The notes under the pieces: generated by a model
Told to the model about the DNA's origin: nothing
The model's input: only the letters and a program-made list of their open reading frames with translations
Databases searched by the model: none
Translations under genes and position numbers: made by a program
Origin: a virus
Lineage: Duplodnaviria; Heunggongvirae; Uroviricota; Caudoviricetes
DNA: 13,072 nt
IMG/VR virus record: IMGVR_UViG_2698536505_000004
Strand: one strand, 5' to 3'
In this document: positions 3,471 to 13,072 of the stretch, piece by piece
Numbering within the stretch: position 1 is the stretch's first letter
Layout: each line of letters opens with the position of its first letter

Positions 3471-4076
3471 TTACACTGGTGTGTTCAGCAAATCGTTAAC
3501 GGCATCAGATGCCGGGTTACCTGCAGCCAGCGGTGCCGGTGCCCCCTGCATCAGACGATCCAGCGCAGTGTCACTGCGCGCCTGTGCACTCTGTGGTGCT
3601 GCGGCCAGAATACGGCGGGCCGTTTCCACGGTCATACCGGGGGTTTCGGCCAGCACGCATGCCTGTTCTTCGCGTCCGTGAGCCTCCTCACAGTTGAGGA
3701 TCCCCATAATGCGACTGTTTTCTGCCGCAACCGCTGCGGTGATCTGCGCGTTCACGTCCGGCTGCGCAGCGCTGGCGTTCTCGCCCTCCGTCGCTTGCAC
3801 CACGCCAGTAACGTCAGCCTGCGAAGCAGTGGCTGAAACAGTTGTTGATTGAGTCTCTTTGGTCATTCGCCCTCCTGAGAGACGGGATTTACGTGCATCC
3901 AGTGCATCACGCATGACGGTGATCGCATCGGTACTGTTCACAAGTTCATCAGCCAGTCCGGCATCAATGGCCTCCTGACCGCTGTACACTGCAGCCTCGG
4001 TATCCAGCACAGCCTGCACGGACAGGCCGGTATATGCCGACACCTTCTGTGCAAACATCCGGCGGGTTGCATCCAT
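3471..4076 (-). CDS. Nu3: Scaffolding protein Nu3 (in-frame internal start within C)
   Basis: In-frame ATG at 4074-4076 gives a 201-aa product MDATRRMFAQKVSAYTGLSVQAVLDTEAAVYSGQEAIDAGLADELV...NDLLNTPV sharing the C stop. Length and position equal lambda Nu3. Confidence 0.8.
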   Translation of the reverse strand: MDATRRMFAQKVSAYTGLSVQAVLDTEAAVYSGQEAIDAGLADELVNSTDAITVMRDALDARKSRLSGGRMTKETQSTTVSATASQADVTGVVQATEGENASAAQPDVNAQITAAVAAENSRIMGILNCEEAHGREEQACVLAETPGMTVETARRILAAAPQSAQARSDTALDRLMQGAPAPLAAGNPASDAVNDLLNTPV

Positions 4077-4770
4077 CCGGGACTGCAGTGTTTCCCGGAC
4101 ATCATCCGGTAGATGGCTGTAGGGGTTGCCATCCACCTTATGGCTGCCGCTGTAAATCAGCGTGATTTCCACGCCCTGTTTCTCCAGCGCAGCACCGTAA
4201 TTACTGTGAGCCATCATGACGCCGATGGAGCCTGTCCGGGCGGTCTGCGTGACCAGACGCCGGGAGGCGGCGCTGGCAAGCAGCTGACCTGCACTGCAGT
4301 TCATGTCGTTGGCCAGCGCCCATACCGGTTTTATGTCTCGCACACGGGCGATGATGTCAGCACAGTCAAATGCTCCCGCCACCATCCCGCCCGGTGTGTC
4401 CATATCCAGCAGAATGCCGTCCACCATCGGATCGCTGGCAGCCTGTTGCAGACGGGCGATAATGCCGTTGTAACCGGTCATCCCCGAATACGGCTGCAGC
4501 GCCCGCGTCCGGCTGACCAGCGTGCCGGACACCGGCAGCACGGCGATGCCGTTCATGACCTGATAACTGCGGGCCTGTCGTGGTCCGTCATCATCAACGG
4601 ATAACGCCAGCGCCGCGGGTGCCTCTCCGGCAGTCAGGCTGTCGCCGGACACCGCATCCGTCAGGCGGCTGATCCCAAGCTGGCCTGCAAGCGCACAAAA
4701 GAAAACCCGCGCATAGGCGGGTTCAAGCATCAGCGGCTCATTAAAGGCCATACTGGCAATATGCGGGAGA

Positions 4771-4790
<20 letters not shown>
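3471..4790 (-). CDS. C: Capsid assembly/maturation protease gpC (S49 peptidase family)
   Basis: 439-aa protein from GTG at 4788-4790 (VTAELRNLPHIASMAFNEPLMLEPAYARVFF...), with GAGGAG Shine-Dalgarno just upstream. 20-nt overlap with B stop, exactly as in lambda. The track ORF is extended upstream to 4925 through the B overlap. Confidence 0.9.
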
Positions 4791-8471
<3,681 letters not shown>

Positions 8472-8497
<26 letters not shown>

Positions 8498-9017
8498 TCA
8501 GCAACCCCGGTATCAGTTCATCCAGCGCGGCTGCTTTGTTCATGGCTTTGATGATATCCCGTTTCAGGAAATCAACATGTCGGTTTTCCAGTTCCGGAAA
8601 ACGCCGCTGCACCGACAGGGGGATCCCGTCGAGAATACTGGCAATTTCACCTGCGATCCGCGACAGCACGAAAGTACAGAATGCGGTTTCCACCACTTCA
8701 GCGGAGTCTCTGGCATTCTTCAGTTCCTGTGCGTCGGCCTGCGCACGCGTAAGTCGATGGCGTTCGTACTCAATAGTCCCTGGCTGGAGATCTGCCTCGC
8801 TGGCCTGCCGCAGTTCTTCAACCTCCCGGCGCAGCTTTTCGTTCTCAATTTCAGCATCCCTTTTGGCATACCATTTTATGACGGCGGCAGAGTCATAAAG
8901 CACCTCATTACCCTTGCCACCGCCTCGCAGAACGGGCATTCCCTGTTCCTGCCAGTTCTGAATGGTACGGATACTCGCACCGAAAATGTCAGCCAGCTGC
9001 TTTTTGTTGACTTCCAT
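8472..9017 (-). CDS. Nu1: Terminase small subunit gpNu1
   Basis: 181-aa ORF MEVNKKQLADIFGASIRTIQNWQEQGMPVLRGGGKGNEVLYDSAAVIKWYAKRDAEIENEKLRREVEEL... (winged-HTH N-terminus), recognised as lambda Nu1. Immediately downstream of cosB. Confidence 0.97.
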
Positions 9018-9194: not shown

Positions 9195-9206
9195 AGGTCG
9201 CCGCCC
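9195..9206 (-). other. cosN cohesive-end site (12-nt GGGCGGCGACCT on minus strand); cosQ expected in flanking 9207-9240
   Basis: Plus strand reads aggtcgccgccc at 9195-9206, the reverse complement of the lambda 12-nt cohesive end. It is flanked by CGCGGGTTTTCGCT (left-end side) and CGTAACCTGTCGGATC (right-end side). Confidence 0.88.
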
Positions 9207-9257: not shown

Positions 9258-9405
9258 TCTGCATGTCACAACGTGCATCTACGCCATCAAACCACGTCAA
9301 ATAATCAATTATGACGCAGGTATCATATTAATTGATCTGCATCAACTTAACGTAAAAACAACTTCAGACAATACAAATCAGCGACACTAAATACGGGACA
9401 ACCTC

Positions 9406-9639
9406 ATGTCAACGAAGAACAGAACCCGCAGAACAACAATCCGCAACATCCGCTTTCCTAACCAAATGATTGAACAAATTAACATCGCTCTTGATCAAAA
9501 AGGGTCCGGGAATTTCTCAGCCTGGGTCATTGAAGCCTGCCGCCGGAGACTGTGCTCAGAAAAAAGAGTTTCTCCTGAAGCAAACAAAGAAAAGAGTGAC
9601 ATTACTGAATTGCTCAGAAAACAGATCAGACCAGATTGA
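9406..9639 (+). CDS. ylcI: YlcI/YnfO-family (DUF3950) small protein, putative ribbon-helix-helix DNA-binding protein
   Basis: 77-aa ORF MSTKNRTRRTTIRNIRFPNQMIEQINIALDQKGSGNFSAWVIEACRRRL... resembles E. coli cryptic-prophage YlcI as recalled. The pattern basic strand (RNIRF), helix (MIEQINIAL), G-x-S/N turn, helix (AWVIEACRRRL) is typical of RHH/CopG-like folds (inference). Confidence 0.7.
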   Translation: MSTKNRTRRTTIRNIRFPNQMIEQINIALDQKGSGNFSAWVIEACRRRLCSEKRVSPEANKEKSDITELLRKQIRPD

Positions 9640-9695
9640 AGCAATTTAGATAATCGTGCAGACTACGCCCCTCATATCACATGGAAGGTACTACA

Positions 9696-10106
9696 ATGGC
9701 TCAGGTTGCCATTTTTAAACAAATATTCGATAAAGTGCGAAATAATTTAAACTATCACTGGTTTTATTCTGAACTAAAACGTCACAATGTCTCACATTAC
9801 ATTTACTATTTAGCTACAGAGAATATTCATCTTGTTCTTGAAAACGATAATACGGTTTTAATAAAAGGACAGGGTAAGGTTGTAAATGTAAGATTTTCAA
9901 AAAATAAATGCCTTATAGAAGCCACCTTAAAAGGATTCAAATCAGGAGAGTTATCATTTTACGAATACAGGAAAAATCTTGCTACAGCAGGGGTTTTCAG
10001 ATGGATTACAAATATCCACGAAAACAAAAGGTATTACTATACCTTTGATAATTCATTACTCTTTACTGAGAACATTCAGAACACTACACAAATATTTCCG
10101 CACTAA
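9696..10106 (+). CDS. DUF1398 (YbcV/YdfO-like) prophage protein of unknown function
   Basis: 136 aa from ATG 9696 ([11 protein letters not shown]...[39 protein letters not shown]...), with GGAAGG Shine-Dalgarno 6 nt upstream. The track ORF starts 15 nt earlier at 9681 without an SD. The FYEYR...AGVFRW motif recalls the DUF1398 family. AT-rich codon usage. Family call is from memory. Confidence 0.6.
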
Positions 10107-10362
10107 ATCATAACGTCCGGTTTCTTCCGTGCCAGAACCGGACTCGCTGGCATGATGAAATATGTGTACCCGGTAACCCCGGTGTGCATCGTTTTTGATT
10201 ATTCCCGCACACTCGCGCAGAAGGAGTTCCCCGTCGGGCTACGGTCTCTGTTAATACGGGAATACGGCGACGATACAGCGCATGATGTGTCAGGCTTGAA
10301 TACCTTTATCCTTTAAAAGGGATATCAGTTAAGTTATCCCGTGTAGGGTATAAACCATTATC

Positions 10363-10597: not shown

Positions 10598-11065
10598 TCA
10601 TCGAAGGCATTGCGTCCTGATGTATTCCTGAAGCGTTCTCAGTGCTGTTTGGTCGCGGATAATTCCGTCCCGGATACCGAGAACGTTTCGTCCAGCAACT
10701 GGAGAGAGTTCGACGGTGGCATCATTGCCCATGCCGGAGGCGCTGGAGGTTTCGGCTGAGGATGGCACAGGGCATTTTCCTTTGACGAGCACCCGACCAC
10801 CATTATCAAGCTTGCGCCGAAGAGCATCATTTTCAGCTTTCGCATCAGCTAACTCCTTCGTGTATTTATCATCGAGTGCATCAGCATCACGCTGGCGCTG
10901 CTGCATGTCAGTAATGGTGGCGTTCGCCTTCTCCAGTTCACTGGCCTTGTTATCGCGCTGTTCTTTGTAGGCGATTGCATTATCACGGTAATGATTAACA
11001 GCCCATGACAGGCAGACGATGATGCAGATAACCAGAGCGGAGATAATCGCGGTTACCCTGCTCAT
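10598..11065 (-). CDS. Rz: Rz inner-membrane spanin (i-spanin)
   Basis: 155 aa from ATG 11063-11065 ([31 protein letters not shown]...), a lambda Rz-like N-terminal transmembrane segment then a coiled-coil-like region. ATGA overlap with R stop. The C-terminal third differs from lambda Rz. Confidence 0.85.
10639..10845 (-). CDS. Rz1: Rz1 outer-membrane lipoprotein spanin (o-spanin), embedded in Rz in the +1 frame
   Basis: 68-aa [48 protein letters not shown]... has a signal peptide with lipobox VVGC and a proline-rich mature part. AAGGAG Shine-Dalgarno 8 nt upstream. Wholly inside Rz, as for lambda Rz1. Confidence 0.78.
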
Positions 11066-11559
11066 TGTTGCCCCCACAAACAGACCTCACGCTCAATCTC
11101 ACGACGAGTCATCAGGCCTTTCCATTGCTTACCGCCAGCGTATGCCCAGCGACGTAGCTGGTCACATGCGCCCTTGATATCGCCCTGGTTTATTTTGCGA
11201 AGAAGAGTAGATGTTCTGAAATTGCCTGCGCCCACGTTATAGACGAACGAGTAAAGAGCGCCGCGCGTTGTTTCCGGTATATCGACTTTGATGTACGGGT
11301 TAATTTGTCTGGCTACCGTGGCAAGGTCTTTATTCAGGAGGGCTTTGCATTCTGCTTCGGTATACGTTTTACCGGGAATGATGTCTTTTCCTGTATGCCC
11401 GTGACATACAGTCCATACGCCAACGATATCTTTGTATGGTATGTAGCTGACACCTTCCAGACCATCGTTACCACTTGGGCCAGTGATTAACACTGATGCT
11501 ATAGCAATTGCTCCGCCACCAATAGCAGCAGCAACGACTTTTCGTAATGATGGAGGCAT
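11062..11559 (-). CDS. R: SAR endolysin (phage-21 R-type lysozyme, GH24)
   Basis: 165-aa [60 protein letters not shown]... has a Gly/Ala-rich N-terminal signal-anchor-release domain and an E-x8-D-x5-T catalytic motif. Close to phage 21 R as recalled. AGAGGTG Shine-Dalgarno present. Confidence 0.9.
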
Positions 11560-11774
11560 TATTCACCTCTCGCAGCCTTGCGCTTATCTTCTTTAATCTT
11601 GAAATAAAGGTTTGTCAGGTACGTCAGCAGGCCAAATACCAAGCTACCCAGCACACCTATTGCTGCCCACTGTGAGGGCGTGACTTTATCGAGCAGCTGT
11701 AAAAACCAGTAGCCAGCACTGCCTGCGGAGGTGCCGTAGGCAATGCCCGTTGTTAACTTATCCATGGATTTCAT
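11559..11774 (-). CDS. S: Pinholin (S21-type class II holin) with dual-start MKSM motif
   Basis: 71-aa [74 protein letters not shown] has two transmembrane segments and resembles phage 21 S21 (S2171 and S2168 forms). GGAGGTGAGG Shine-Dalgarno upstream. Stop overlaps R start (TAATG). Confidence 0.9.
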
Positions 11775-11961
11775 AGCCTCACCTCCGCAAATAACGGATG
11801 GTGTACACGGTTCGGAACGAAGAGGAAAGGTATAGAAGTTACATTAGCGTAAGGCTTGAACATCTATTCAAAAAGAAAAACGCCGCGATTATTCTGGCGT
11901 AGCTGAAAGCATCATACAATTATCAAATACGAAAATTACAAAATCATTAAAACGCATCACG

Positions 11962-12693
11962 TTACATCATGTCTTTTTCTAAAAAAAATCTTGATGAATA
12001 TTGATGGGGAGGAACACCAAAATACCTTCTGAAAACACTTACAAAATATGACGTGTTTTCATAACCGCATATCTCAGCAACTTTTCCAACAGAATATAAA
12101 TTGTAGCTTAATAACCTTTCCGCCATCACCATTCGCTCTTCAAGAATTAACTTACTAAATGATAAGCCTTCGTGCTTTAATTTTCTTTTTAACAGACTTT
12201 CACTCAGATACAGTCTTGAAGATATATCACAAAGTCTCCATGCTGCAGATATATCCGTGTGAATAATAGCCTTAACTTTACTTCCTAAACTATTAAGACA
12301 TCCAAATAAAAAACTTTGCACTATTTTCTCTGAAGATAAGATAGCAAGACATGCAAGTGATATTTGATTTCTAACAAAATCCACAGTTCTGCCATCACAA
12401 TTCAAGCATGCAATCAAGTTCTTTAACAATGAAAAATCTTCACATTCCACCATCAAGTATGCCGGATAAAACCTTCTTACAGAAAAAGGTGAGAGTGTGT
12501 TGCTTTTAAAGAAATCATTAACTGTTTTTTCTTCAACATCTACGATCATTACATGATCTATATTTGATGAAAAAAAATCTTTTAAATTGTAATCAATGAG
12601 AACAGCACTTCCTTTTTTAAACAAAATATCTTCTTTACCAATTCGGACATCAAACGAGTTCAACACCAAAATGATAGAACATATGTATAGCAT
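11962..12693 (-). CDS. AraC/XylS-family transcriptional regulator (AppY/GadX/Rns-like), moron
   Basis: 243 aa from ATG 12691-12693 with AGGTGG Shine-Dalgarno 5 nt upstream; the track ORF begins at an upstream GTG at 12702. C-terminal dual-HTH signature ...AAWRLCDISSRLYLSESLLKRKLKHEGLSFSKLILEERMVMAERLL...VGKVAEICGYENTSYFVSVFRRYFGVPPHQY. Gene is visibly AT-rich compared with flanking phage genes. Confidence 0.8.
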   Translation of the reverse strand: MLYICSIILVLNSFDVRIGKEDILFKKGSAVLIDYNLKDFFSSNIDHVMIVDVEEKTVNDFFKSNTLSPFSVRRFYPAYLMVECEDFSLLKNLIACLNCDGRTVDFVRNQISLACLAILSSEKIVQSFLFGCLNSLGSKVKAIIHTDISAAWRLCDISSRLYLSESLLKRKLKHEGLSFSKLILEERMVMAERLLSYNLYSVGKVAEICGYENTSYFVSVFRRYFGVPPHQYSSRFFLEKDMM

Positions 12694-12996
12694 ATTATCC
12701 ACCTGATATCATTGGGGTTACACCAGGTAAGTATAGGTGGAAAATCAATATTCGCCAGTTCAACAATAAGGAAAATTTCATTGCATCACAAGTATAAAAT
12801 TATGTATTTAACTCACAAAGACAAATTATTAAACCAATCTGTTATATTATATATAGCTGCGTGGAATCATAATATTATATATTTTGACTGGCATGTTTAC
12901 TAACTTTAAGTTGCATCTCAATTGTTTCTTCAGCGTAAACAGAGTTTTTATACAAACTGACACTCTGGGTATCATAGTGTAGGTAATGACTCCAAC

Positions 12997-13072
12997 TTAT
13001 TGATAGTGTTTTATGTTCAGATAATGCCCGATGACTTTGTCATGCAGCTCCACCGATTTTGAGAACGACAGC
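12997..13072 (-). CDS. 3' end of an ORF running off the window (candidate late antiterminator Q by position)
   Basis: Minus-strand frame reads ...LSFSKSVELHDKVIGHYLNIKHYQ then stop at 12997-12999. Normal GC content, directly upstream of the AT-rich moron and lysis cassette where Q sits in lambdoid phages. Identity not verified. Confidence 0.3.
   Translation of the reverse strand, partial: LSFSKSVELHDKVIGHYLNIKHYQ

Follow-up and report, generated by a model that had tools for sequence, protein, structure and literature searches.

A widespread prophage AraC-family regulator related to PatE, PsrB, and AppY in the Q–S cargo site of Escherichia coli prophages

Prophage AraC regulators (AppY, PatE, and PsrA/B) are known to feed the gadE acid-resistance circuit and, in enterohemorrhagic Escherichia coli, to cross-regulate type III secretion. 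DNA binding by AppY, which directly activates gadE, gadY, and slp, depends on its residue K170 (PMC10057817). PatE and PsrB act on hdeA/gadE, and PsrA/PsrB are reported to work through gadE/yhiF and hdeA (review PMC10877973). Here, we analyze a gene of this kind in a 13,072-nucleotide stretch of viral DNA (IMG/VR record IMGVR_UViG_2698536505_000004; hereafter the window, meaning the whole stretch). The sequence represents, in reverse orientation, the late region of a lambda-like E. coli prophage, with the late genes on the minus strand. That the gene, hereafter araC, encodes an AraC-family cargo regulator at the site between antiterminator gene Q and holin gene S is close to certain. Its lineage is a widespread, uncharacterized addition to the known prophage PatE/Psr/AppY group, and it extends known biology and corrects the map of the locus. 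We hold with moderate confidence that araC is a lysogenic-conversion gene, a regulator of this clade carried in a Q–S cargo cassette that would activate the acid-resistance regulon.

The regulator and its relatives

The gene and the block in which it lies are located as follows.

11962–12693, minus strand: coding sequence of an AraC/XylS-family regulator of 243 amino acids, with its ATG at 12693 (open reading frame list, Pfam)
11833–12981: AT-rich block, delimited by composition, that consists of araC, its 289-bp upstream region, and most of the spacer between araC and S

The original prediction described a sharply AT-rich block of ∼1.2 kb with a complete AraC/XylS regulator that has a strong Shine-Dalgarno sequence and the orientation of the late operon, and these claims hold. 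GC content is 0.316 in 11833–12981 versus 0.537 in the remaining window (z = −3.9 against non-overlapping 1149-bp windows); it is 0.323 within the limits first proposed, 11790–12996. Along the sequence, values drop from 0.47–0.60 to 0.30–0.34 over a span of ∼11850–13050. The open reading frame extends over 11962–12702 on the minus strand (246 codons), where a GTG at 12702 is an in-frame alternative start, and is on the same strand as the S21 holin, R, Rz, Nu1, and A genes. Pfam domains HTH_18 (54.9 bits, cut-off 33.6, E-value 1.1e-14) and HTH_AraC (44.1 bits, cut-off 26.6, E-value 2e-11) score above their gathering cut-offs, and the C-terminal domain of ∼100 residues with two helix-turn-helix motifs that marks the AraC/XylS family is present. 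As for the two outcomes named beforehand as speaking against the prediction, the lack of such a motif and a conserved core gene with no shift in composition from the flanks, neither was seen: profile search found the motif, and the composition shifts.

Structure prediction is consistent with this assignment. The AlphaFold2 model (predicted local distance difference test score of 81.5) begins with a beta-sandwich, continues through a helical linker, and ends in seven helices, with beta-strands at residues 3–54 and 79–83 and helices at residues 87–134. Over its full length, the model matches Rns, CsvR, and ToxT in Foldseek (E about 1e-10, template modeling score about 0.5), and its C-terminal domain superposes on the DNA-binding domain of GadX at 1.2 Å and also on MarA and AraC. 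Model and Foldseek matches together show an N-terminal regulatory or dimerization domain joined to the DNA-binding domain. Matches by sequence in the PDB are the DNA-binding domain of GadX, CsvR, Rns, and ToxT. Among NCBIfam models, the best match is YdeO over residues 1–236, at 126.5 bits versus a 348-bit cut-off, and the GadX model scores 85.5 bits versus a cut-off of 500 bits. By these scores, the protein represents a paralogous lineage, not an ortholog of YdeO or GadX.

The protein is 100% identical to RefSeq entry WP_016246969.1 of strain A23, which is labeled only as a "helix-turn-helix domain-containing protein," and its PHROGs entry is phrog_1450, "unknown function." Searches of the searchable literature by accession numbers and descriptive terms returned no name for the protein. 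A text match to "PatE" in PMC3486847 was rejected, as it is the author name Patel.

Sequence comparisons place the protein in a narrow, mainly Escherichia clade that includes GadW, YdeO, AppY, PatE, and PsrA/PsrB. Identities in BLASTP are 34% to GadW, 32% to AppY, and 32% to YdeO (alignments over residues 1–233), and the protein has the N-terminal clade motif M..CS[VI]I, of which M1 and C5 are invariant in the alignment. An exhaustive HMMER search of 1.84 billion representatives found only ∼10 clusters (50% identity) at E ≤ 1e-30, and the full-length family is therefore small. Two further comparisons are with prophage proteins of O157:H7 strains. ECs_0287 of strain Sakai, the product of the only AraC gene of Sp1/CP-933H and the inferred PatE, is 54% identical to the 243-residue protein. 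EDL933_RS10010, the inferred PsrB, is 40% identical; in the part of CP-933O/OI-57 that was covered, its gene is the sole AraC gene. Variants in IMG/VR are 89–92% identical to EDL933_RS10010, which fits the 90% identity reported between PsrA and PsrB. Across the DNA-binding domain, identity is 71% to the inferred PatE and 54% to the inferred PsrB, and the stretch ISSRLYLSESLLKRKLK over the first recognition helix is identical to that of the inferred PatE. Residue K169, invariant in the alignment, aligns with K170 of AppY.

Similarity to PatE extends to the two-domain architecture (247 vs. 243 residues), an AT-rich prophage location (GC 0.35 vs. 0.31), and a shared TATACT −10-like element in the upstream regions. 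However, the N-terminal domains are only 40% identical, and PatE-type genes are located after tail-fiber assembly genes (tfa) and beside an IS3 fragment, not in the Q–S interval. This context holds in nearly all of 36 PatE-type loci in IMG/VR, whereas the araC lineage is always between Q and S. With 54% identity and a different context, araC shows neither the near-identity nor the shared position expected of a patE ortholog. The PatE-type genes are themselves 97–99% identical, nearly always with tail-fiber assembly genes before them and an IS3-family transposase fragment next, and include a copy in the isolated phage mEp332, which suggests a fixed module at the prophage end.

AppY of the K-12 prophage DLP12 is likewise prophage-borne, AT-rich (GC 0.317), and of the same clade, with its K170 conserved here and a recognizably similar N-terminus (MDYVCSV... 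vs. MLYICSI...). But appY is at the far end of DLP12, beyond tail-fiber remnants, and the Q–S site of DLP12 holds nmpC. The original description of the regulator as AppY-like is thus right as to clade and loose as to kinship, as identity is 32% to AppY versus 54% to the inferred PatE (71% in the DNA-binding domain). GadX shares 41% identity in the DNA-binding domain. GadW, YdeO, and GadX differ in being encoded by core-genome genes, in the acid fitness island or at the ydeO locus, and not by phage cargo.

In location, psrA and psrB (Z1789 and Z2104 of O157:H7) have the same kind of locus as araC; they belong to the same clade and are directly downstream of Q and upstream of the holin gene in lambdoid prophages. 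They differ in their neighbors, which are tRNAs, TerB, and a NanS-p esterase versus blc and ybgA here. The PsrB-like and P0024 lineages are always just after Q and before TerB, NanS, and the holin, behind four types of Q (PF06530, Sp8-type, Sp6-type, and DUF1133), and the P0013 lineage follows a PF03589-type Q by 204 bp. Four of five clade lineages are directly downstream of Q, behind five different Q types, and an AraC regulator at the stx-equivalent position is therefore an established pattern, not a new one. Reviews place psrA (Z1789) in OI-50/CP-933N. In tblastn searches, no AraC homolog was found in Sakai Sp6, Sp7, or Sp8 or in CP-933N of resequenced EDL933 (CP008957, 1630001–1680000), and among the prophages searched for PsrA, only CP-933O has one. 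The assignment of psrA to CP-933N may reflect an old assembly or another prophage. A "PatE homologue" reported for Nissle 1917 (CIW80_12240; bioRxiv 2025.08.01.668021) was dropped from the comparison because RefSeq CIW80_RS12240 is bcsZ and the gene was not located.

The lineage is common. Of 5426 complete E. coli genomes, 1033 (∼19%) have araC at ≥80% DNA identity. Many of these come from clinical isolates, and nearly all carry one chromosomal copy. The lineage is also found in inducible or isolated lambdoid phages. The ratio of nonsynonymous to synonymous substitution rates is 0.26 relative to the 87%-identical allele of phage 1H12 and 0.15 relative to that of phage IdasGreatGrand; araC is under purifying selection.

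The cargo cassette and the IS1 junction

Intact relatives reveal the structure of the locus. In the IS1-free strains A23 and FDAARGOS_497 and the isolated phages IdasGreatGrand and 1H12, the gene order is Q, blc (on the opposite strand), ybgA, araC, S21 holin, R, and Rz. Q is a 125-residue antiterminator of the Q21/QuuD type (Pfam Phage_antitermQ). The cassette between Q and S is 3.1 kb in size and has three genes, of which araC is last. One encodes a Blc-type outer-membrane lipocalin, and ybgA encodes a 319-residue fusion of a 2-thiouracil-desulfurase-like domain (PF04463) to DUF1722. In the intact relative L002, these two genes are located as follows.

L002 7262–8938: blc and ybgA, which always accompany araC in this lineage

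Among 80 loci in IMG/VR, 75 have enough upstream DNA for the layout to be counted, and all 75 have Q, blc, ybgA, araC, and S in this order. A Qin-like prophage also has this cassette, there with an AraC allele (237 residues) that is 85% identical, such that the cassette occurs on two backbones, DLP12-like and Qin-like.

The cassette has the features of a moron. L002 and DLP12 are 92% identical in both flanks. On the Q side, the match ends 18 bp short of the Q stop, and on the S side it restarts 11 bp ahead of the S start (essD in DLP12), where the S21 holin gene borders the cargo site. At this same site in DLP12, nmpC replaces the 3.1-kb interior, as originally proposed, and in Sakai Sp8 the distance from Q to the holin gene is only ∼320 bp. 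The cargo is thus present or absent between conserved flanks, and its composition is unlike that of the backbone. GC content steps from 0.48–0.54 in Q, S, R, Rz, and terminase to 0.43–0.44 in blc and ybgA and to 0.31 in araC and its upstream spacer, and third-position GC is 0.26 in araC, 0.40 in ybgA and blc, 0.44 in R, and 0.61 in terminase A. The AraC block is a compositionally distinct submodule of the cassette. Stx phages carry stx in the Q–S interval. By synteny in intact relatives, araC holds the equivalent position, on the late strand between Q/pR′-tR′ and the holin gene. It resembles the stx and nmpC morons in that it occupies the same insertion site between conserved flanks, is foreign in composition, and is read in the direction of late transcription, but the cargo is a regulator with blc and ybgA rather than a toxin or a porin, and there are no tRNA genes. 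The original assignment to a moron at the stx-equivalent locus names the right site in intact relatives; it took as the cargo unit what is only the most AT-rich third of a three-gene cassette.

What was thought to be the 3′ end of Q is not part of Q. The sequence encodes the C-terminus of InsB of IS1 (...VELHDKVIGHYLNIKHYQ*), which is followed by the right inverted repeat, and 12996, the proposed end of the block, is the base after the InsB stop. True Q in intact relatives is ∼2.2 kb further upstream, with blc and ybgA intervening.

12982–13072, minus strand: right end of IS1, consisting of the last 24 insB codons (stop 12999–12997) and the right inverted repeat, with 91/91 bp identity to IS1A

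Both an inverted repeat and the 3′ end of insB are thus present, and three IS1A copies of strain A23 (L001) match all 91 bp exactly. In a megablast search of 11700–13072 against complete E. coli genomes, query bases 1–90 match in 9841 records, and most genomes match only from base 91 on. The insertion point is 289 bp upstream of the araC ATG, and the transposase gene reads toward araC. It corresponds to L002 9000/9001, within the spacer of a distal promoter-like element described below. In IMG/VR, the junction of IS1 and araC is found only in the source contig IMGVR_UViG_2695420585_000002, which ends within IS1; no match to the junction was found in the genome contig collection or in any complete E. 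coli genome. The end of the contig is probably an assembly break at a repeat. A simple insertion of IS1 would show a 9-bp target duplication (beginning TACACTATG), and the second end of the element is off the contig.

At least three more independent insertions of IS1 are present in the same cassette of other strains.

L015 (MINF_9A) 4378–5075: IS1 in ybgA
L020 (NCTC11023) 3928–4625: IS1 at araC codon 28
L021 (EC25) 2191–2888: IS1 near the araC 3′ end

These insertions point either to an IS1 hot spot in the AT-rich block or to occasional selection for loss of the regulator.

Expression signals and neighboring genes

Signals around araC in the window are the following.

12699–12704, minus strand: Shine-Dalgarno sequence AGGTGG, 5 nt before the ATG and invariant in four alleles
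12730–12758, minus strand: proximal sigma-70 promoter-like element, with −35 CTGGCG (12758–12753), a 17-nt spacer, and −10 TATACT (12735–12730)
12971–12976, minus strand: orphaned −10 TATGAT of a distal promoter-like element (TTTACA-16-TATGAT), the −35 of which is displaced by IS1
11870–11900, minus strand: weak hairpin in the araC–S spacer (ACGCC...GGCGT, loop of 11 nt) and, after it, UUUUUCUUUUU (by eye and centroid fold)

The proximal element is ∼40 nt upstream of the ATG. The sequence TATACT(T), with a −35 of xTGGCx or TTGGTA, is aligned in the upstream regions of the allele of the present window (WIN), 1H12, the Qin-type allele, P0013, and PatE, and the PsrB-like gene has TATAAT at the position aligned with TATACT. 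Because it matches the consensus at 8 of 12 positions, the element was missed by the consensus scan, which had a threshold of 9/12. Its conservation supports a promoter of its own for araC that is independent of Q and is still intact here; the evidence is a footprint, not a mapped start. The distal element is the top hit of the promoter scan in the intact relative (10/12; L002 8985–9012). Its 28 bp are invariant in four alleles except for two spacer positions, including in 1H12, where the spacer upstream of araC is otherwise much diverged. An independent promoter, as originally suggested, is compatible with conserved promoter-like elements upstream, with the correction that in this window IS1 is in the spacer of the distal one. 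What would predispose the block to silencing by H-NS is its GC content of 31–32% over 1.15 kb. Downstream, the weak hairpin at 11870–11900 is possibly a leaky terminator of the cargo gene, for which the evidence is weak.

A hairpin that sequesters the Shine-Dalgarno sequence was considered and rejected. The sequence CCACCT (12740–12735, minus strand) is the exact complement of AGGTGG, both are invariant in three alleles, and in all three the minimum free energy structure pairs UCCACCU with AGGUGGA. However, z scores are modest (−1.1 to −1.65), the invariance of both sides leaves no covariation, and CCACC is not conserved in P0013 or PatE. CCACC is also upstream of the predicted start site of the proximal promoter and overlaps its −10 region. 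In long transcripts, from the distal promoter or the late promoter, pairing of CCACCU with AGGUGG could gate translation, which would then differ between transcript types.

The remaining features belong to the lysis and head genes.

6572–8497, minus strand: terminase A, a head gene
8472–9017, minus strand: Nu1, a head gene
9195–9206, minus strand: lambda cos, an exact match to the cohesive end (GGGCGGCGACCT), upstream of Nu1
9406–9639, strand opposite the late genes: DUF3950 (YlcI/YnfO-like) gene, as in DLP12 and Qin
9681–10106, strand opposite the late genes: DUF1398 (YbcV/YdfO-like) gene, as in DLP12 and Qin
10598–11077, minus strand: Rz
11062–11559, minus strand: R, a SAR-type (signal-arrest-release) lysozyme
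11559–11774, minus strand: S21-type class II holin (pinholin), the first late lysis gene (Pfam Phage_holin_2_1, 2.2e-35)

Given the location of cos, ∼2.8 kb would separate araC from the right end of the packaged genome. The DUF3950 and DUF1398 genes make up a second AT-rich cargo block, at 9400–10150 between Rz and cos, with GC content of 0.31–0.33 at 9600–10050. Within Rz, an out-of-frame open reading frame for 68 amino acids (10639–10845, minus strand) has a lipobox-like signal (…LIMVVGCSS…) and is the expected Rz1 outer-membrane spanin, yet here it reaches the end of Rz. Scans for tRNA genes, Rfam families, and repeats found no tRNA, no Rfam family, and no meaningful repeats.

Predicted function and significance

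Because of the precedents of AppY, PatE, and PsrB, activation of the acid fitness island is the likeliest function of araC, and we rate the prediction that it acts on gadE and hdeA as little better than even. In a lysogen, the gene would most likely be expressed from its own sigma-70 promoters, the proximal CTGGCG-17-TATACT and, in intact alleles, the distal TTTACA-16-TATGAT. Damping by H-NS is probable, given that the block is 31% GC. By homology to its relatives, the protein would bind AT-rich sites at promoters of the acid fitness island, those of gadE, hdeA, and perhaps slp and gadY. Glutamate-dependent acid resistance would then be switched on, with knock-on repression of the type III secretion system in strains that have the locus of enterocyte effacement. 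After induction, araC would be swept into Q-antiterminated late transcription. In intact phages, a terminator-like hairpin is 99 bp after Q and there is no convincing terminator after araC, and late transcripts are therefore predicted to traverse araC to reach S. In this window, IS1 is in the spacer of the distal element, and the gene, its Shine-Dalgarno sequence, and the proximal element are intact, with transcription of the IS1 transposase gene pointing into araC.

Several observations weigh against this interpretation. The contig stops in IS1, so that the link to Q is not visible in the window itself, and because several strains have copies disrupted by IS1, the gene is dispensable. Targets are predicted from ≤54% identity to characterized relatives, and members of the clade differ in the details of their regulons. 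The key comparisons also depend on location: ECs_0287 is equated with PatE (Z0321, OI-8), and EDL933_RS10010 with PsrB, by inference from genomic location only. As to expression, consensus scans found promoter-like sites no more commonly than in shuffled sequence, and the proximal element has a poor −35. After araC, the terminator scan was negative, and the fold of the region does not stand out from shuffles (z = −0.21).

The repeated insertions of IS1 also raise the possibility that this copy is a silent passenger, cut from its main promoter and possibly, via a rearrangement, from Q/pR′, unexpressed, and heading for loss. The insertion here splits, within its spacer, the promoter-like element with the strongest conservation and the best score, independent insertions elsewhere disrupt ybgA, codon 28 of araC, and the region near its 3′ end, and the end of the contig in IS1 leaves room for a rearrangement. 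Nevertheless, the reading frame is intact and 100% identical to that of A23, where the cassette is uninterrupted, the proximal promoter-like element and Shine-Dalgarno sequence are untouched, and transcription of the transposase gene runs into araC. As the example of bgl shows, an IS element that inserts into a silenced, AT-rich region can also turn genes on, and because IS1 favors AT-rich targets, repeated insertions need not mean selection. We regard decay as improbable. It is less probable still that the protein is a local regulator of blc, ybgA, or late and lysis functions of the phage, with the cassette as a self-contained regulated module. AraC-family genes often adjoin their targets, four of the five clade lineages are directly downstream of Q, and in the WIN and P0004-type lineages, araC is invariably accompanied by blc and ybgA (75 of 75 loci, two backbones). 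Sister lineages, however, do without blc or ybgA: the PsrB-like and P0024 genes are beside TerB and NanS, P0013 is straight after Q, and PatE is after tail-fiber genes. The difference in GC content, 0.31 in araC versus 0.43–0.44 in blc and ybgA, suggests separate acquisition, and all characterized relatives act on acid-resistance genes of the host.

Transcription through the site allows for a role in lytic growth, in which the regulator is made mainly by read-through from Q and reprograms the dying host for phage production. In all intact relatives, araC is co-oriented with the late genes between pR′/tR′ and S with no strong terminator between araC and S, and relatives recur behind Q genes of five different types. 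However, Stx, nmpC, bor, and other morons have no lytic role at the same permissive sites, PatE and AppY, which act in lysogens, are elsewhere in their prophages, and the conserved promoter-like elements just before araC speak for Q-independent expression. Of the explanations considered, this one seems to us very doubtful. We give a small chance to a mixed scenario in which recurrence behind five Q types was selected and not merely tolerated, and the gene works in two modes, from a weak, H-NS-damped promoter in the lysogen and in a Q-driven burst upon induction. The further step, similarly speculative, is that genes for acid stress, the envelope, or motility would be reprogrammed by such a burst, whether in the induced cell itself or, via the induced fraction, for the lysogen population.

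Ready-made comparisons exist in nature, as IS1 alleles are known for the promoter spacer, ybgA, and araC itself. If the lineage works like its relatives, it would be common, transmissible by phage, and able to modify acid tolerance and passage through the gut.

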